Assembly: GCA_020846775.1 (NCBI GenBank)
Contig: JADLDG010000023.1
Location: forward strand, 75,298-139,297
Length of the DNA: 64,000 bases
Reading direction: 5' to 3'
From: Nitrospirota bacterium
GTDB lineage: Bacteria > Nitrospirota > 9FT-COMBO-42-15 > HDB-SIOI813
Below the pieces are notes generated by a model. The model worked only from the letters and a program-made list of their open reading frames with translations. It was not told the DNA's origin and did no database searches. Position numbers and translations under genes: made by a program. Below, piece by piece: positions 28,523 through 35,695 of the stretch (position 1 is the first letter of the stretch; each line of letters starts with the position of its first letter).

Positions 28523-30358
28523 TTACAGTGAAATTTTAATGCCCCAATATGTGGAAAATCCGGCAGTGCCATATCCTTTAGCCTCTTCGTATTCTTTGTC
28601 AAAGAGGTTTTCTATTCTGCCAAAGAGCTCAGCGCCCTGCTTGAGTTTATAACTTGCAAATATGTCAAACTTTGAATATGCCTTTAAGGTTTCAGGTTTA
28701 CCATCATAGTCAGCGTCGAAATCGAACCTTTTACCCGTGTGGAGATATTTTATGTCAAATACGCTGCGGCTGGAGGGCTTAATGGTAAATGTAGCACCAT
28801 ATTTATTCAGTGGCCTTCTTAAGAGATAGGTATTGGTCTTTTTATCTTCTGTTTCATCATAGGTATAATTGCCATTGATATGCAGGACCGTTGATAGGTC
28901 CCAATCAAGATTTGCCTCAATACCCTTTGACGTTGCCTCGCCGATATTCTTAAGTGTTCCATCCCACTGAATCAGGTCTGTAAAAGTATTCTCATAATAT
29001 GTCAAAGAAAATAATGAACTGCTGAAAACCGTCTCCTCAAATCCTATTTCCCACCCGGCATTTTTTTCAGGTTTGAGGTCAGGATTGCCGAATCCAGGCC
29101 AGAAAAGGTCATTCAAGGATGGGCCATGAAAACCAGTTCCATACTGGGCATGCCACTTCAATTCATTTGTCTGATTTATGGTTGTACCTACCCTGTATGT
29201 TAATGCATTCTCATATAATCCGCTCTCATCCCACCTTAATGCGGCAAGCAGGATAGCAGAGGGATTCAGTCTCCTGTTGTCCTGTATATATAGCGCGTTA
29301 TTGTTGAAAGACTTGCGATATGTCCCGCCGGAGGATACAACACCGCCACCCTTGTTTTGCCGCTCGTAGCCAAAAGTAAGTTTATTCCCATCACTGCTCG
29401 TGATATTGACATGCCAGTCAGCGGTAGTTACACTTGTGTCTATATTGCTTCTGTTTTCAGGTGTGTCCTCATCAAGCCCTTCAATCCTTTCCTGTGAATT
29501 CGATATGGAAAAACTGTTATCCCAATTACCTGGCATTGAATTTAATACGTTAAACCCCAGGAGACTCCATCGTCTGTTTGTCCTGTTATTCAGGTCGTCG
29601 CTTGCTGCAAAAGTGGTATAGTCAAAGCCGTCTATCTCAGTCCTGGCTTCAGTGAGCTGAGCAGTAAAGCCCATTGTCATGCCTGGACGATGAATCCCTA
29701 TCTTCGAGGATATATTAGTATTTTCATAACCGTCATTTTCTGAACCGGATGCTATAGTTGAGAAGCCCTCAGTGTCAAAACGGGAAGCTGTGAGATTTAT
29801 GTCATAGAAGTCCTTCCTGATACCGGTTGAAATACTTTCCTTTGTTGTCCCATAGCTGCCCGTCTCGAAAGAAACGGTGCCGCCGGTGACTGACCCCTTT
29901 TTAGTGAATATCTGTATTACGCCACCCATAGCCTCAGATCCGTAAAGGGTGCTCATTGGACTGCGTATAATCTCTATGCGCTCGATATTATCTACTGACA
30001 GGTCAGCAAAATCGAACAGTCCGGTTGTCGGACTGTTGACCCTGATGCCATCTATCAGTACCAGGGTGTGTGAAGAGTTAGCGCCGCGAATGAATACAGT
30101 GGAAGCCTTTCCAGTACCTCCCGGCTGAACTACATCAAGCCCCGGTACATTACGTAATAAATCTGATACGTTTGATATTCCAGATTCATTTATGTCCTTC
30201 TCTGTGATTACGGTGACTGAAGCCGGTATGACTGATCTGGGTAATGCAGTAGTTGAACCTGTCACTATTATTTCATCCAGGCTTACACTTTCAGCAAAAG
30301 AATGTTTTGCAATTAATATACAGAAAATTAAAGTTACAATAAATAGATGTTTGCTCAT
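28523..30358 (-). CDS. btuB: TonB-dependent outer-membrane receptor, BtuB-like (cobalamin/corrinoid)
   Basis: 611 aa. Signal peptide, TonB box (…DEIIVTGS…), plug and 22-strand barrel pattern. Sits in a cobalamin-riboswitch-controlled operon. Confidence 0.8.
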   Translation of the reverse strand: MSKHLFIVTLIFCILIAKHSFAESVSLDEIIVTGSTTALPRSVIPASVTVITEKDINESGISNVSDLLRNVPGLDVVQPGGTGKASTVFIRGANSSHTLVLIDGIRVNSPTTGLFDFADLSVDNIERIEIIRSPMSTLYGSEAMGGVIQIFTKKGSVTGGTVSFETGSYGTTKESISTGIRKDFYDINLTASRFDTEGFSTIASGSENDGYENTNISSKIGIHRPGMTMGFTAQLTEARTEIDGFDYTTFAASDDLNNRTNRRWSLLGFNVLNSMPGNWDNSFSISNSQERIEGLDEDTPENRSNIDTSVTTADWHVNITSSDGNKLTFGYERQNKGGGVVSSGGTYRKSFNNNALYIQDNRRLNPSAILLAALRWDESGLYENALTYRVGTTINQTNELKWHAQYGTGFHGPSLNDLFWPGFGNPDLKPEKNAGWEIGFEETVFSSSLFSLTYYENTFTDLIQWDGTLKNIGEATSKGIEANLDWDLSTVLHINGNYTYDETEDKKTNTYLLRRPLNKYGATFTIKPSSRSVFDIKYLHTGKRFDFDADYDGKPETLKAYSKFDIFASYKLKQGAELFGRIENLFDKEYEEAKGYGTAGFSTYWGIKISL

Positions 30359-30376
30359 TTACCCTTTTCTCCTTAT

Positions 30377-31123
30377 TTAGTTGCTGAGTTTGTATGTAAT
30401 AGGCACTGCAATATCAAGTTCCCGTAACTCCTTATGCAGATTTGTAATCTTCCCTATCATTTTGATAGTTTTGATGCCGGCATCATCCAGGATTTTTGAA
30501 CCTGATGATTTCGCTATATATATACTGGAAGGAATCCCATCCTGTCCTATATAGAAATTTATGTAGACTGTCCCTTCTATCCCTTTAGACTTCGCAATTT
30601 CAGGGTAATATTTATGTCGTTCGATCTCCTTTCTGATTCTTTCACCAAAAGCATTAATATTATAGCTGTTGTCCCCCTTATTACCCCCGTTATCAGAAAG
30701 CCCGTTACCCCCCCCTGTTTCGCTGCTTACTCCCATCTTAACGTTATCATTACCACTTTCAACATGGTCATTCTGAACCTGTTGAAGGCTTTCCTGCCCA
30801 TCCGTCAATTGAGCCACTGATATAAGTTCAGGGTGATCTGCTCTATTTTTGTCGTCCCCTGAGAGTATGGTCTTCATGTTTTTTTTGTCAGTATTTACAG
30901 CAATAGATTGACTGGCAGGTAATGACCTCCCTATATGTATCATTTTATTCTGATTAACAGGATTAATGACATCAGGGATATAACCCCAAATTACCATGTC
31001 CTGATGGACTGCCACAGAATTCCCGATCACATCATCAGGTATATACGCAATAACTGCCGCAACTGCCAAATGTGCTGCAAAGGAGAATAATAATGAAATG
31101 ATCAGTATCTTCCTGTTCAACAT
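30377..31123 (-). CDS. tonB: TonB family energy transducer
   Basis: 248 aa. N-terminal TM anchor, low-complexity spacer, C-terminal TonB_C domain (…YPEIAKSKGIEGTVYINFYIGQDG…). Confidence 0.75.
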   Translation of the reverse strand: MLNRKILIISLLFSFAAHLAVAAVIAYIPDDVIGNSVAVHQDMVIWGYIPDVINPVNQNKMIHIGRSLPASQSIAVNTDKKNMKTILSGDDKNRADHPELISVAQLTDGQESLQQVQNDHVESGNDNVKMGVSSETGGGNGLSDNGGNKGDNSYNINAFGERIRKEIERHKYYPEIAKSKGIEGTVYINFYIGQDGIPSSIYIAKSSGSKILDDAGIKTIKMIGKITNLHKELRELDIAVPITYKLSN

Positions 31124-31962
31124 TTGTCTTTACCCCATATTGACCTTGTACCGGTTAGACCATGATATTTAACGGAGGCATCCAATGGTATAAGGCTTAC
31201 ACGAGGCGTGCCGGATGCAGGGTTATTGTCCACGATTACATTACAGCCGTATACGTTTCTGATATTTACCTCTGTTATGACTTCATCGGGGGTGCCCATT
31301 GCAGAGATCTTTCCTCTGTTTATCAGCATTATTTTGTCACAATACTGACTACCTATGTTCAGGTCATGCAGGGAGGTTATGATCGTCATCTTCCTTTCCA
31401 CGTTTAATCTTGATAGGAGGTTGAATATCTCCATCTGATGACCAATGTCTAAGGATGTTGTTGGCTCGTCCATTATCAGGATATCAGGCTCCTGAGCCAG
31501 CCCCCTCGCTATAATTGCCCGTTGTTTCTCACCCCCGGAGATATCTGTTATGGGCCTGTCTCTTAATGAATATATCCCTACACATGACATTGCATCAGTA
31601 ACTACTTTTTTGTCATAAGTGTCTTCAAACAATTTTCCCTTAAGATGCGGATATCGTCCCATGGAAACAGTTTCAGTAACTGTATATGGAAAAAGAAATG
31701 AAGACTCCTGCGGGATAAATGAGACAGTTCTCGACAGCTCTCTCCTTCCCACCTTACTGATATCTGTTTCTCTGAAGTATATTTGTCCGGCCTGAGGTGC
31801 GAGTATCTTTGATAACAATTTCAGCAGCGACGATTTCCCGGAGCCGTTAGGACCTATGATACCAAAGAACTCACCATCACGAATCTCGAATGAAACATTT
31901 TCTATTACCCATTGACCTGAATATTTGAAATAAACACTGTCGGCCTCATATGCAGATTTCAT
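31117..31962 (-). CDS. btuD: ABC transporter ATP-binding protein (FecE/BtuD/HmuV type)
   Basis: Walker A GPNGSGKS, signature SGGEKQR, Walker B ILIMDEPT. Confidence 0.9.
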   Translation of the reverse strand: MKSAYEADSVYFKYSGQWVIENVSFEIRDGEFFGIIGPNGSGKSSLLKLLSKILAPQAGQIYFRETDISKVGRRELSRTVSFIPQESSFLFPYTVTETVSMGRYPHLKGKLFEDTYDKKVVTDAMSCVGIYSLRDRPITDISGGEKQRAIIARGLAQEPDILIMDEPTTSLDIGHQMEIFNLLSRLNVERKMTIITSLHDLNIGSQYCDKIMLINRGKISAMGTPDEVITEVNIRNVYGCNVIVDNNPASGTPRVSLIPLDASVKYHGLTGTRSIWGKDKC

Positions 31963-32984
31963 ATCAGTCTCCGTGTCCGAAGTAAGTATAGAAAGAAGGG
32001 GCCGCCGGCTAATGCGGTTATTATACCAACGGGGATCTCTGCAGGTGAAAGCAGCGTCCTTGCGACTGTATCAGCAACCGCAAGAAAAACACCTCCTCCT
32101 ATCATCGAAACAGGCAGGATGAATCTGTAATCATATCCGGCCAGCAGACGAATTGTATGAGGGATCATGATGCCTATGAAACTTATTGGACCGCATATTG
32201 ATACAGAGGCTGCAACCAGAAGTGCCCCGCCAACCAAAACCAGTTTTTTGATTCTCTCGACATTCAGGCCAAGAGTAGCGGCTGTATCATCATCCATGGT
32301 AAGTATATTTAGTGACTTTGCCTGCGAAAACAAAATTAATGCACCGATAAAAGCGAATATAAAAGCTGCTAAAAGTGTTAAATAGTCCGGCGAACTTAGA
32401 TACCCCAATAACCAAAATAAGATCTTATACAGGTTAAGTGAATCGCTGATTGAAACGACCATCAGAATCGCGGCAAATATTATTGCATTAACCATGACGC
32501 CTGAAAGAAGCATGGTATGAGGAGGAATCTTATTATCAACAGTACCGAGTCTGTAAACAATATACAGTGTCAGCATTGCTCCGGCAAATGCAAATACCAT
32601 TGTTGACGATATTCCAGCTATACTTATAAATACGCCTAAATAGAGTGATACAATTACGCCTAATGCAGCTCCACTCGAAATTCCAAGAACATATGGATCG
32701 GCCAGAGGGTTCTTAAGTATGGCCTGAAATCCAGCGCCAGCGGTTGCGAGGGCGCCTCCCGTAATCAGTGCAAGTATTATTCTGGGAAGCCTGACCTGAA
32801 AAAGGATTGTTTTAACCGTTTCTGACTGAATATTACCGGTGAAAAAGGACTTAAGCCCAATAAGTGCATCATAGGGTTTTAATGCATCTGAGCCATATAA
32901 TAATAAGGCCAGCGATACAATAAGAGAAAGTAAAGATAAGATGGATATGGACGAGATCCATCGCTTTAAGGTTAATGTTTGCAT
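31959..32984 (-). CDS. btuC: ABC transporter permease, FecCD family (BtuC/HmuU type)
   Basis: 341 aa polytopic membrane protein with FecCD-family conserved blocks (…LLSGVMVNAI…, …TLGLNVERIK…). Confidence 0.9.
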   Translation of the reverse strand: MQTLTLKRWISSISILSLLSLIVSLALLLYGSDALKPYDALIGLKSFFTGNIQSETVKTILFQVRLPRIILALITGGALATAGAGFQAILKNPLADPYVLGISSGAALGVIVSLYLGVFISIAGISSTMVFAFAGAMLTLYIVYRLGTVDNKIPPHTMLLSGVMVNAIIFAAILMVVSISDSLNLYKILFWLLGYLSSPDYLTLLAAFIFAFIGALILFSQAKSLNILTMDDDTAATLGLNVERIKKLVLVGGALLVAASVSICGPISFIGIMIPHTIRLLAGYDYRFILPVSMIGGGVFLAVADTVARTLLSPAEIPVGIITALAGGPFFLYLLRTRRLI

Positions 32985-33028
32985 GATAGGAATAGAATCT
33001 GATTTGTTGCTGATTTATACCTGTCCTT

Positions 33029-33979
33029 TCATTGTAATGGTTTTTTCTTAATACCTGCTTTGTTATTGATATCCGGATTATTGCGGATATATTCATGTAC
33101 CTGTTCAAGTCCATCTATAATCCTTGGTCCCGGTCTGCTTACAATATCCGGATCAATTGTATACACCATACCGTTTTTTATGGCCGATATACCTCCCCAT
33201 CTTTTCTTCCATCCCTGAAGTTGTCCTATCAGGTCAACAGGTACAATAATAACCTCCGGGTCCTTCAATATTAGCTCCTCCATATCTATGCGAGGATAGC
33301 GAATGGGTGAGTCTGATAGTACATTAAACCCGCCTGCAGTGAGGATAATGTCATGAATAAAACTCCCTGGACCTGCCGATATTACAGGGTCTGTACTGAT
33401 AAGGTAAATTACCCTCTTTGGCTTGCCAATAGATGCCTTTTTTTTAATTGAATCAATTCGCCGGGTTAGTGAAGCTGTAATTTCCCGGGCCTCCTTTCTC
33501 TGACCTGTTACATCTCCTATAGCAGAGATATCATTAATCACATCATTAATATTATGAGGATTTAAAACATAGGTCTTTATATTCATTCGTTCAAGTTCAT
33601 CCACTATTTCAGGTTTGTTCCCTTCTGTGGTTGCAAAGACGATGTCAGGCCTCATTGAGATGATGTTTTCGATGTTCGGGCTTATAAGCCACCCTACCTT
33701 AGGCTTATCTCTTGCCTCTTCAGGATAGTCACATAAATCTGTGACGCCTGCGATTTTATCTCCTAATTTCAGAGAAAAAAGGATCTCGGTAATGTTAGGT
33801 GCAAGCGAGACAATTCGCTCAGGTCTTTTGGAGAGTTCAATCTTTCTTCCTGTACCATCCGTAAAGGTTTCGGCACAAATGTAAGATCCTGAAAAAAGAA
33901 GAAGGTATGCAACGAGGAGAATAAATATGCTGAGTCTTCTGATGTGAACAGGAGCGCTTACGAGTTTCATGATAGACAT
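33029..33979 (-). CDS. btuF: Periplasmic substrate-binding protein, class III (BtuF-like cobalamin-binding)
   Basis: …RIVSLAPNITEILFSLKLGDKIAGVTDLCDYPEEA… is typical of BtuF/FepB-class binding proteins. Start chosen at ATG 33979 (MSIMKLVS…) preceded by GGGGA. The ORF track's longer N-terminal extension overlaps the riboswitch platform. Confidence 0.8.
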   Translation of the reverse strand: MSIMKLVSAPVHIRRLSIFILLVAYLLLFSGSYICAETFTDGTGRKIELSKRPERIVSLAPNITEILFSLKLGDKIAGVTDLCDYPEEARDKPKVGWLISPNIENIISMRPDIVFATTEGNKPEIVDELERMNIKTYVLNPHNINDVINDISAIGDVTGQRKEAREITASLTRRIDSIKKKASIGKPKRVIYLISTDPVISAGPGSFIHDIILTAGGFNVLSDSPIRYPRIDMEELILKDPEVIIVPVDLIGQLQGWKKRWGGISAIKNGMVYTIDPDIVSRPGPRIIDGLEQVHEYIRNNPDINNKAGIKKKPLQ

Positions 33980-34089
33980 AAAAAATCCCCAAGGCCAATG
34001 ATAACGACCCTGAGGATTGCACCCTGCTTCTTCACCCAAAAGGTTAGACTATGCAACCTCTCGTCCGGAGGTTACAATACTCTGTAGTT

Positions 34090-34224
34090 CAGGCAGGTCT
34101 TCTGGTTTATGGATCAACCTACTGACTGCGCCTTCCCGGGAGTCTCAACACCCCAGTGGCAATTCGCAGCTATCGTCCCCATTCACAGCGGCGGGACCAC
34201 CCCTGATTTCCACAGGGTTCCCTC
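34090..34224 (-). promoter_or_regulatory. Cobalamin (AdoCbl) riboswitch aptamer in the btuF-operon leader
   Basis: Minus-strand RNA: AGGGAACCCUGUGGAAAUCAGGGGUGGUCCCGCCGCUGUGAAUGGGGACGAUAGCUGCGAAUUGCCACUGG…GGGAAGGCG…CAGAAGACCUGCC. Contains the conserved GGUGRAAxUCC-like, CCCGCCxCUGU, GCCACUG and B12-box (…AGACCUGCC) elements in canonical order. A TTGACA-17-TTATAA promoter at 34298-34270 lies upstream. Confidence 0.85.
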
Positions 34225-34334
34225 TTGGCTTAGAACTCATCATTCAAGCACACCTGATTTATACTGTATACTTATAAAGCAGATAATGAGTATCTGTCAA
34301 GTTATTTTATTAATTAGATAGTGCGTTACTTGAG

Positions 34335-34940
34335 TCAGAAGGAGACCTTAACATGAAAACCAATTGCATCTTTATCAAATGTCAGAAAGGGGATAACAGC
34401 GTCACTTCCTGAATAGACCCTGTAACTATTAAGCATAGACTGAGTCACAGCCGCTGCCAGGATGGCATCTTTGCTTAAACCGGTCTCTCGATGAAGGATA
34501 TTTGGGTCAGAATCAATATTATCTTCGTTAAAGTAATATGCATAAACTGAGTACCACAGAAAGTCAGTTCCACTGAAAAATAGAAGTGCCTTATTGTAGG
34601 TCGTCGGTTCCTTCCGGAACCTGTGAAGGGCATATTCGAAACTCATGTTAGCACCAACTTCACCTCCAAGTGCAAAGGAGGGATAAGCATTTGCATCAAT
34701 TTTACTTGTAGATGTATAGCCAAGGAACAGGTTGTTTTTTCGTTTGTTTAGAAATGATACTGAAATCCCCTCAGCACCGACCGAACTTCCTACTATTGCA
34801 TGTCCATACTCATGAACAGTCAGGTTAGTTGCGAATGCTGTTCCAACCTGAATTATGTCAATTATCCCTGATTCAAAAGCCTTAACCGGTTGTGCGGCCA
34901 TTAAGGTGATCATTATGATGATGCTTAGAACTACCTTCAT
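34335..34940 (-). CDS. Hypothetical secreted protein with a single HExxH (HEYGH) motif, under c-di-GMP riboswitch control
   Basis: ATG at 34940 (MKVVLSIIIMITLMAAQPVKA… signal peptide) preceded by GAGGGG. HEYGHAIVG motif. C-terminal …VKVSF aromatic end. About 200 aa mature. No recognised family. Confidence 0.55.
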   Translation of the reverse strand: MKVVLSIIIMITLMAAQPVKAFESGIIDIIQVGTAFATNLTVHEYGHAIVGSSVGAEGISVSFLNKRKNNLFLGYTSTSKIDANAYPSFALGGEVGANMSFEYALHRFRKEPTTYNKALLFFSGTDFLWYSVYAYYFNEDNIDSDPNILHRETGLSKDAILAAAVTQSMLNSYRVYSGSDAVIPFLTFDKDAIGFHVKVSF

Positions 34941-34963
34941 TTTTCCCCTCGCGGCCGAAGTGG

Positions 34964-35101
34964 GGAAATAAAAAAGCCCATTACCACCAGATGGGTAATG
35001 GGCTTTAGGTCCATTAGACACTTCGGCTGCCCCGCTACCCTCATTTATGAGGGCCGGTGGCTATGCGTCCTACCGTTGCCGGTAGTTTGCTCTTATCGGT
35101 G
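34964..35101 (-). promoter_or_regulatory. c-di-GMP-I (GEMM) riboswitch aptamer (35101-35019) plus intrinsic terminator expression platform (35006-34964)
   Basis: Minus-strand RNA: CACCGAUAAGAGCAAAC-UACCG-GCAA-CGGUA-GGACGCAUAGCC-ACCGGCCCUCAUAAAUGAGGGUAGCGGGGCAGCCGAAGUG. Matches GEMM-I hallmarks (GCAAAC, GNRA-capped P1b, GGACGCAAAGCC, GGUAGCGGGG…ACCGA) and resembles the Vc2 riboswitch as recalled. Followed by GCCCAUUACC-N7-GGUAAUGGGC-UUUUUUAUUU, then SD and ATG. Confidence 0.7.
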
Positions 35102-35130
35102 GTCATTCGTTTATGTAATTTACTTTTTTA

Positions 35131-35158
35131 TTTATACCATATATTCAGCTTATGTCAA
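35131..35158 (-). promoter_or_regulatory. Sigma70-like promoter driving the c-di-GMP riboswitch leader
   Basis: Minus strand: TTGACA (35158-35153), 16-nt spacer, TATAAA (35136-35131). About 30 nt upstream of the aptamer 5' end. Confidence 0.5.
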
Positions 35159-35161
35159 ACA

Positions 35162-35695
35162 CTATTTAGAGTAACCATATAGAGCATCTGAGTTTGCAAG
35201 TTCCACAAAACGCTCAAATGATGCGTTTGATTCAAAATATAAGATCCTGCCTGACGCATCAGAATAGGCCACAGCATCAGCCTTATCAACAACCCTGCTG
35301 GTAAGGGGATCTTTCGAATACAGCAGAGACGAATTCTCCTGTAAGTTAAACCGATATTCTTTTCCACTGGCAAAATACTTCTTGCCATTAATAATAACGG
35401 CATCCTGCTGTTCACCGGTGAAACGATTCGTTACCATATTAACTTCACTTGAATCAACCCTGTTTAACCACATTTTTGCCGGGACGTTTTTGTTGATATT
35501 TACTGCGTAATTATTCTTGAGTGATATTAACCGTTCATGTGCATAATAATTCTGCCTAACAGACTCCAGCACCAGAATGGCATTAGAATCAATTGCGTCT
35601 TCAGCCGCATAACTGTTGACAACAAAGCATACGGATAGAGCGGCAGATATTATTAGTGCCTTCTTAATTAATGATGTGAAATTATTTTTTTTCAA
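35162..35695 (-). CDS. Hypothetical secreted protein (177 aa)
   Basis: TTG start at 35695 with strong GGAGGAG Shine-Dalgarno 6 nt upstream. Signal peptide (MKKNNFTSLIKKALIISAALSVCFVVNSYA). No recognised family. The SD lies 4 nt from the tRNA-Asn 3' end. Confidence 0.5.
   Translation of the reverse strand: MKKNNFTSLIKKALIISAALSVCFVVNSYAAEDAIDSNAILVLESVRQNYYAHERLISLKNNYAVNINKNVPAKMWLNRVDSSEVNMVTNRFTGEQQDAVIINGKKYFASGKEYRFNLQENSSLLYSKDPLTSRVVDKADAVAYSDASGRILYFESNASFERFVELANSDALYGYSK

Follow-up and report, generated by a model that had tools for sequence, protein, structure and literature searches.

The stretch of DNA analyzed here (the window, 64,000 nucleotides from a Nitrospirota bacterium) carries on its minus strand, between 35158 and 34335, a promoter, a leader that holds a riboswitch aptamer of the GEMM-I family and an intrinsic terminator, and one gene for a predicted exported protein with an HExGH motif. 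The locus is a GEMM-I/Ib riboswitch, i.e. a member of a known riboswitch family, which we read as being of the OFF type. What goes beyond the routine is the presence in Nitrospirota of the A20 signature (adenine at the position equivalent to G20 of Vc2, a ligand contact), the contrast between G20 and A20 aptamers on orthologous genes, and the link of the riboswitch to an orphan HExGH family. From 5' to 3' on the minus strand, the features are as follows.

35153..35158, minus strand: -35 hexamer TTGACA, read directly from the sequence and invariant in 8 orthologous leaders
35131..35139, minus strand: extended -10 element TG-G-TATAAA, at a 16-nt spacer from the -35 hexamer
35097..35103, minus strand: putative antiterminator 5' strand ACCACCG, overlapping the whole 5' strand of P1 (co-transcriptional minimum free energy (MFE) fold at 142-146 nt)
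35019..35101, minus strand: GEMM-I aptamer (c-di-GMP-I fold) with P1, P1b with a GCAA tetraloop, and P2 (Rfam RF01051 and covariation)
35091, minus strand: A at the position equivalent to Vc2 G20, the alpha-site ligand contact (cmscan alignment)
35064, minus strand: equivalent of A47, the intercalating adenine, which is A in all 39 upstream aptamers
35026, minus strand: equivalent of C92, the Watson-Crick partner of G-beta, first C of GCCGAAG in J2/1 (Rfam consensus indexing against junction topology)
35011..35016, minus strand: linker UAAUGG, able to pair with CCAUUA (35001-34996) of the terminator 5' arm in the putative antiterminated fold (MFE at 130-146 nt)
34966..35006, minus strand: intrinsic terminator AAAGCCCAUUACC / loop CAUCUGGU / GGUAAUGGGCUUU, then a U-tract (folding and conservation)
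34983..34989, minus strand: putative antiterminator 3' strand UGGUGGU, made of terminator loop and the first 3 nt of the 3' arm (co-transcriptional MFE and duplex energy)
34954..34962, minus strand: box CACUUCGGC(C) just before the Shine-Dalgarno sequence, conserved in the clade of the window (clade 1)
34945..34950, minus strand: Shine-Dalgarno sequence GAGGGG, read directly, a purine-rich sequence being kept in orthologues
34335..34940, minus strand: target gene for a 201-aa predicted exported protein (open reading frame, alignment and hydropathy)

The promoter given in a preliminary description of this DNA (TTGACA-16-TATAAA) is in place at 35158-35131. Also, the hexamer TATAAA (35136-35131) is preceded by TG (35139-35138), making an extended -10 element; among the 8 orthologous leaders this TG is invariant and the -10 hexamer is TAnAnT-like. 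The start of transcription is predicted near 35124. A consensus promoter scan did not report the site, only because it demands T at position 6 of the -10 hexamer. Compared with shuffled sequence, the entire leader folds with a z-score of -5.66, and none of 200 shuffles was as good.

The terminator, Shine-Dalgarno sequence and ATG of the preliminary description were likewise recovered, the start codon of the target gene being the ATG at 34940-34938. This start is preferred because of the Shine-Dalgarno sequence and the 201-aa length of most homologues. A mechanical reading of the open reading frame begins at a GTG at 35021 and gives 228 aa (34335-35021, minus strand), spanning the aptamer tail and the terminator; the start of three database homologues (P0011, P0018 and P0022, 213-215 aa) is probably over-extended likewise.

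The aptamer and position 20 in homologous leaders

The leader carries a real aptamer of the GEMM-I family. The Rfam model RF01051 (c-di-GMP-I) matches 35101..35022 with 65.3 bits, over a gathering score of 35 (E = 1.6e-10), and does so at full length (model positions 1-87 of 87). All the hallmarks listed in the preliminary description are present, namely GCAAAC, a P1b capped by GCAA, GGACGCAUAGCC, and GGUAGCGGGG...GCCGAAG. P1 is formed by the 5' strand CACCG (35101-35097) and the 3' strand CG-AA-GUG (35025-35019). Moreover, the window aptamer scores 102.4 bits against a covariance model built from the confirmed aptamers upstream of homologues of the downstream protein. In an alignment of 30 distinct homologous aptamers, 94.5% of the cells are paired and 22 of the 27 pairs change on both sides, a result as high in none of 500 shuffles, while slid controls gave 32-45%.

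We collected 88 loci encoding homologues of the target protein, of which 37 come from genomes and 51 from metagenomes. In 39 of about 85 loci with evaluable upstream sequence (the window and 38 others), a GEMM-I aptamer precedes the gene on the same strand, at a distance of 37-391 nt. The riboswitch is thus recurrently associated with the HExGH family, a possibility that the preliminary description had raised.

This collection allows a comparison of the ligand contacts among aptamers. The equivalent of G20 was placed by our own indexing, as the base just 5' of the G-C pair of P1a, and the indexing was checked against A47, taken as the first A after GACGC. The preliminary description had expected both G20 and C92 to be in place; C92 is (35026), whereas position 20 is occupied by A (35091). 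The canonical c-di-GMP contact set, G20/A47/C92, therefore fails at position 20 only, with A47 and C92 kept. Position 20 is A in all leaders of the clade of the window (24/24; clade 1, protein identity of 63-90%), where the 5' neighbour of A20 varies while A20 stays fixed. It is also A in the 4/4 leaders of a second clade (46-53% identity), in which P1b and P2 differ considerably in sequence, and it is G in the remaining 11 aptamers, which precede more distant members of the gene family. A47 and C92 are conserved in the leaders. The split follows the clades strictly and without mixing, which argues that this base would be under functional constraint.

The window aptamer does not belong to the c-di-GMP-I-GGC variant (Rfam RF03167), which needs G47, as it has A47. 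Two other aptamers, L011 801-885 and L021 9-89, obtain their best score with the RF03167 model, yet their residues are G20/A47/C92; their assignment to the GGC variant was rejected because position 47 is A and not G, and automatic annotation would mislabel both. The GEMM-I aptamer of L009 (3798-3927) has a 41-nt insertion in P2 and an Rfam score of only 39.7 bits. For this leader, a U92 variant, in which C92 is placed in AGC within P2, was also rejected, the C of GCCGAAG in J2/1 being kept in L009 too.

Terminator, proposed antiterminator and probable direction of the switch

The terminator hairpin (35006..34973) has 13 bp, including a 10-bp core GCCCAUUACC/GGUAAUGGGC with 6/10 G-C pairs, is followed by UUUUUUAUUU and folds with a free energy of -19.6 kcal/mol, so that it qualifies as a rho-independent terminator. 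In clade 1, 99.5% of its cells are paired and one pair is compensated from AU to GC. The hairpin lies wholly downstream of the aptamer, and both coexist in the MFE structure.

A competitor of this hairpin appears when the nascent transcript is folded at increasing lengths. Transcripts of 130-146 nt have UAAUGG of the linker paired to CCAUUA of the terminator 5' arm, and those of 142-146 nt also show a duplex between ACCACCG of the P1 5' strand and UGGUGGU; completion of the 3' arm makes the terminator the MFE structure. The antiterminator duplex of the window has an energy of -12.0 kcal/mol against a shuffle mean of -5.2 kcal/mol, with 4/500 shuffles as low. In clade 1, 91.5% of the cells of the antiterminator and 94.7% of those of the linker hairpin are paired, the latter with no covariation. 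An alternative antiterminator made of the P2 3' strand GGGUAGCGGGGC and the terminator 5' arm was rejected, P2 being a very stable local hairpin and the pairing being absent throughout the co-transcriptional MFE series.

The complementarity between the P1 5' strand and the terminator loop is also found in divergent leaders. In the G20 lineages L073, L067, L069 and L011, the loop holds CCUUUAUCGG, a perfect 10-bp complement of CCGAUAAAGG, a sequence made up of the P1 5' strand together with J1/2. AUCGG or GUCGG is retained in the loops of the second A20 group, and in L009 the two sides have changed in a compensatory way, with CCGAC in the 5' strand and GUCGG in the loop. Altogether, the two elements are complementary in 23 of the 27 distinct leaders with a terminator-like hairpin (five further distinct leaders have no hairpin meeting the criteria of the finder), with duplex energies that range from -8.8 to -12.7 kcal/mol, compared with -1.9 to -5.8 kcal/mol for the shuffle means, and at most 9/500 shuffles as low. 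Four leaders do not follow this pattern: in L021 and L011 the finder chose an unrelated hairpin, and the other two are L086 (17/500) and L009 (52/500). In L011 (~890-940), and also in L064 and L066, the hairpin equivalent to the terminator, CCAUUUUCC-UUUAUC-GGGAGAAUGG, lacks a following U-tract; the P1 5' strand nevertheless has its complement in the loop of this hairpin, and the read-out may be another one in this lineage.

The transcriptional platform of the preliminary description, which had left its direction undecided, is supported, and comparative and folding evidence now points to OFF. Ligand binding sequesters the P1 5' strand used by the antiterminator, and it should therefore cause termination; a transcriptional OFF switch is thus the most likely reading, for which the comparative loop/P1 complementarity is the strongest evidence. 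In this mechanism, a sigma-70-type promoter would drive a 5' leader with a GEMM-I-fold cyclic-dinucleotide aptamer. In the unliganded RNA, P1 would be open, its 5' strand ACCACCG would pair with UGGUGGU in the terminator loop and at the top of the 3' arm, and the linker UAAUGG would simultaneously hold the terminator 5' arm. Formation of the terminator would be kinetically delayed, allowing RNA polymerase to read through into the single downstream gene. The ligand would lock P1 and the junction, making the 5' strand unavailable, so that the 13-bp terminator would form and transcription would stop at the U-tract. The exported HExGH protein would then be made when the dinucleotide is low.

Several observations weigh against this mechanism. 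Up to the U-tract, the fold with P1 and the terminator has -53.9 kcal/mol and the forced antiterminator -48.1 kcal/mol, and the terminator fold is better by 6-9 kcal/mol even without ligand. Being thermodynamically disfavoured in this way, the antiterminator would have to act through kinetics. Also, the antiterminator of the window reaches no further than 3 nt into the terminator stem. In clade 1, the antiterminator, the linker hairpin and the helix formed by the box are conserved with no changes on both sides; since these pairings vary on one side only, covariation within the clade adds nothing to the switch model. Finally, the known GEMM-Ib switches of Geobacter are all ON (PMC6456294, PMC9262584). 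An ON switch, where ligand binding prevents termination, has these examples in its favour (PMC9262584). However, the terminator of the window does not overlap the aptamer and coexists with it, and its sole conserved competitor is the P1 5' strand, which is the one that the ligand sequesters, making an ON switch highly improbable here.

A second, translational OFF layer was also considered. In the window, the box CACUUCGGC and the aptamer tail GCCGAAGUG (35027-35019) are perfectly complementary over 9 bp, and in the MFE structure of the full-length RNA this tail-box helix encloses the terminator; across clade 1, it is 96% paired, with one-sided changes only. Without ligand, the tail would pair with the box and leave the Shine-Dalgarno sequence free, whereas with P1 formed the box would be released into a UUUCCCC...GGGGAAA hairpin that buries it. 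When P1 is forced in the window, such a hairpin does form (-12.1 kcal/mol), with an unpaired probability near 0 for the Shine-Dalgarno core. Nonetheless, over 19 leaders Shine-Dalgarno accessibility changes little and inconsistently (from 0.49 to 0.31 in the window, with no change or a reversed one in several others), no pair changes on both sides, and in 5 orthologous leaders the box pairs with the linker and not with the aptamer tail. The translational layer does not hold up well across leaders and we consider it unlikely.

The exported HExGH family and its surroundings

The target protein begins with a hydrophobic signal segment and contains HEYGH once, at residues 43-47, in agreement with the preliminary description, which had assigned it to no known family. 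An alignment of 25 homologues, with identities as low as 33%, shows no variation at H43, E44, G46 and H47. Likewise invariant are several residues of a conserved FFSGT(D/E)FLWY block, D145-P146, N171, R174 and D180, and the protein also has a conserved C-terminal F; from this alignment D/E126, D145 and D180 would be candidates for a third zinc ligand. No match to Pfam or NCBIfam and no relative in the PDB by sequence profile were found for the protein. Its confident AlphaFold2 model (predicted local distance difference test score, pLDDT, of 90.6; predicted template modelling score, pTM, of 0.82) is a helical bundle with two beta-hairpins, and a comparison with PDB folds gave no neighbour (best E = 0.41, template modelling score (TM) < 0.3). 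In a viral structure library, the two best fold matches are M50 and SpoIVFB, both weak (E = 0.033 and 0.096; TM 0.39-0.44). A deep profile search over 1.84 billion representatives returned only the family itself, in 111 clusters, many of them extended at the N-terminus by 100-240 aa. When 10 long or distant members were scanned against Pfam, no match passed the threshold; in a distant member, PF02163 stays sub-threshold, with 14.7 bits against a cut-off of 27.2 and on the HExxH segment only. The target is thus a tiny orphan family of predicted exported HExGH proteins.

Peptidase M50 (site-2 protease) resembles the window protein in having an HExGH motif in a long helix and, weakly, in fold. 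Membership was rejected on hydropathy and on the sub-threshold PF02163 score: only the N-terminus is membrane- or signal-like, and the mature part reaches a maximum KD19 of 1.18. Unlike M50 enzymes, the window protein has no Pfam match, has too little hydrophobicity for a polytopic membrane protein and has a signal peptide and two beta-hairpins. The outer-membrane location put forward in the preliminary description finds no support either, the mature part not being hydrophobic, and the hydropathy argues for an exported soluble protein as a better reading than an outer-membrane or a polytopic M50-type enzyme. As for the label 'metalloprotease-like', the invariant HExGH motif, its sole basis, stands, but no known zincin fold was matched in the PDB; the target is presumed to be a zinc hydrolase.

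The HExGH gene stands alone, and its neighbourhoods vary among the sampled homologues. In the clade of the window, the conserved order is PFOR, an MglA-like GTPase, a tRNA, a 177-aa secreted hypothetical protein, the riboswitch-HExGH unit, and then a cobalamin riboswitch with a B12-uptake operon. The 177-aa signal-peptide protein (35162-35695, minus strand) ends 4 nt before the -35 hexamer of the riboswitch promoter, has no Pfam or NCBIfam match and is syntenic in the closest genome (L089 7247-7780). On the other side, the cobalamin riboswitch (RF00174, 102.8 bits, 34272..34075, minus strand) lies directly 3' of the stop codon of the HExxH gene, with no terminator evident between that stop codon and the cobalamin leader, and has a promoter-like site of its own (TTGACA at 34300-34295, about 17 nt, TATAAG). 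It heads an operon of btuF-like, FecCD, ABC, TonB and TonB-dependent-receptor genes (34039..28523). Elsewhere in the window, a PyrR binding site (RF00515, 58515-58630, minus strand) scores 57.1 bits, just over the gathering score of 54.

Some homologous loci differ in their layout. In L093 (3283-9135), the homologue P0074 lies within a series of OprB porin, ZnuA, HExxH gene, NikR, ABC ATPase and ABC-3 permease; this metal-uptake locus may hint at a metal-related role, although the pattern is not repeated in the other sampled neighbourhoods. In three G20 lineages (L021 9-563, L063 4-505 and L081 776-1276), about 360-390 nt separate the aptamer from the matched coding region downstream, a gap that would correspond either to a long N-terminal extension, as in the 300-aa family members, or to an intervening element. 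Finally, L091/L092 (4925-6000) have a homologue without riboswitch, whose upstream intergenic region, about 1.08 kb long, contains neither a called gene nor an Rfam match and could hold an unrecognised regulatory element.

Ligand and comparison with known cyclic-dinucleotide switches

In GEMM-I aptamers, G20 reads the G-alpha of cyclic di-GMP (c-di-GMP) (PMC6140456, PMC8835794), and A at this position defines the GEMM-Ib aptamers that sense cGAMP (3',3'-cyclic GMP-AMP) (PMC6140456, PMC5888326). The window aptamer combines the GEMM-I fold with this A, which is the sequence signature of GEMM-Ib. The preliminary description of a c-di-GMP riboswitch is thus right as to the GEMM-I family, but judging from these bases it is not safe to name c-di-GMP as the ligand, because A20 marks GEMM-Ib (3',3'-cGAMP) or bispecific aptamers. 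The latter have A20 in an otherwise canonical GEMM-I pocket, as the window aptamer does, and A20 can bind both dinucleotides, c-di-GMP being bound through a protonated adenine (PMC6140456). For example, Vc2 G20A binds cGAMP at 120 nM and c-di-GMP at 53 nM, whereas the wild type binds c-di-GMP in the picomolar range (PMC6140456). Among natural A20 aptamers, Gm0970 is about 1600-fold selective for cGAMP (PMC8835794), whereas Cbe 1-2 from C. beijerinckii prefers c-di-GMP (30 nM against 463 nM) (PMC6140456). Unlike the window aptamer, Vc2 G20A is a laboratory mutant and Cbe 1-2 is clostridial, neither with a known link to the HExGH gene family. Given A20, we expect that 3',3'-cGAMP is accepted by the aptamer and that c-di-GMP is bound with lower affinity than by the related G20 aptamers; in vitro, the aptamer is most likely bispecific, and the ligand acting in the cell would depend on the production of cGAMP by this Nitrospirota organism. 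We regard as probable an OFF switch that responds to a cyclic dinucleotide and whose A20 pocket accepts cGAMP in vitro.

Two facts count against going from A20 to cGAMP. Natural A20 aptamers span from cGAMP-selective to c-di-GMP-preferring, so that A20 does not fix the ligand; and neither an open reading frame with a GGDEF motif nor a cGAMP synthase was found in the 64-kb window, while about 555 kb of related loci contain a single GGDEF, of the canonical kind (GHQAGD, L056), with no Hypr GGDEF seen there. If the organism makes c-di-GMP only, this would be an ordinary c-di-GMP riboswitch, where A20 lowers the affinity and tunes the threshold and the OFF logic is the same. This accords with the RF01051 match, with the c-di-GMP preference that a natural A20 aptamer such as Cbe 1-2 can have (PMC6140456), with the G20 aptamers and the same platform logic of homologous genes elsewhere, and with the canonical GGDEF. 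Set against it are the strictness of A20 in two protein clades with diverged helices, with G20 strict in the others, and the cost of G20A in Vc2, of about three orders of magnitude in c-di-GMP affinity (PMC6140456). We hold this reading as a serious, if tentative, possibility. The opposite one would be a cGAMP-selective GEMM-Ib riboswitch, in which the clade of the window moved an ancestral c-di-GMP-controlled gene to cGAMP control. The combination A20, A47 and C92 is the GEMM-Ib signature (PMC6140456, PMC5888326), A20 is invariant and clade-specific against G20 on orthologous genes, and a broad distribution of cGAMP synthases among bacteria has been reported (PMC8835794). However, selectivity needs features beyond A20, such as the composition of P1, which contributes to dinucleotide selectivity and is not readable as such from sequence (PMC6140456); no cGAMP synthase was seen in the window or in the related loci; and the characterised Geobacter GEMM-Ib switches are ON (PMC6456294, PMC9262584). 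We regard cGAMP selectivity as rather doubtful. The clade-wise A20/G20 pattern itself cannot separate a change of ligand to cGAMP from a tuning of the threshold for c-di-GMP.

The probable reading, an OFF switch with a pocket that accepts cGAMP in vitro, can be placed between two groups of known switches. The aptamers of Cd1/Cdi-1-3 and Cdi-1-12 of C. difficile are taken as G20 c-di-GMP sensors. These class I OFF switches have, like the window, a GEMM-I aptamer, a separate terminator and a competing antiterminator (PMC9262584, PMC6200980), which in Cd1 acts kinetically, as it would here. Unlike them, the antiterminator of the window sets the P1 5' strand against the terminator loop. Cdi-1-12 also controls a single secreted protein gene, repressing the zinc metalloprotease ZmpI by about 62-fold (PMC6200980); ZmpI appears unrelated to the window protein, for which no PDB sequence or fold match was found. 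On the other hand, the Geobacter GEMM-Ib switches (Gs1761, Gm0970 and pilM) share with the window the GEMM-I fold, the A at the G20 equivalent with A47 and C92 kept, and the control of transcription through an intrinsic terminator. They differ in being ON switches whose terminator overlaps the aptamer (PMC9262584), whereas the terminator of the window is separate and its logic would be OFF. Also, they belong to Desulfuromonadales and not to Nitrospirota, no Hypr GGDEF being known for the organism of the window, and their targets are cytochromes or pili instead of an orphan exported HExxH protein.

Annotation as a c-di-GMP sensor is routine for GEMM-I aptamers. One orphan gene family with either G20 or strictly A20 aptamers, under what would be the same OFF logic, offers a natural paired test of ligand change against threshold change. 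If the ligand is cGAMP, riboswitch-mediated cGAMP signalling would extend to Nitrospirota, with a member of the OFF type. It is possible, although we think it somewhat unlikely, that a single G20-to-A change moved an ancestrally c-di-GMP-repressed gene to 3',3'-cGAMP control in the clade of the window. Should this be the case, it would be the first cGAMP OFF riboswitch and the first cGAMP riboswitch regulon outside Deltaproteobacteria. It would also be evidence for an undescribed cGAMP signalling pathway (of the Hypr-GGDEF type) in Nitrospirota, with a new family of exported HExGH hydrolases, of a fold absent from the PDB, as its output. For this rare and structurally unmatched exported family, the association with a riboswitch provides a first functional handle and, by analogy with ZmpI of C. 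difficile, the HExGH protein may remodel the cell surface or matrix as the dinucleotide falls.

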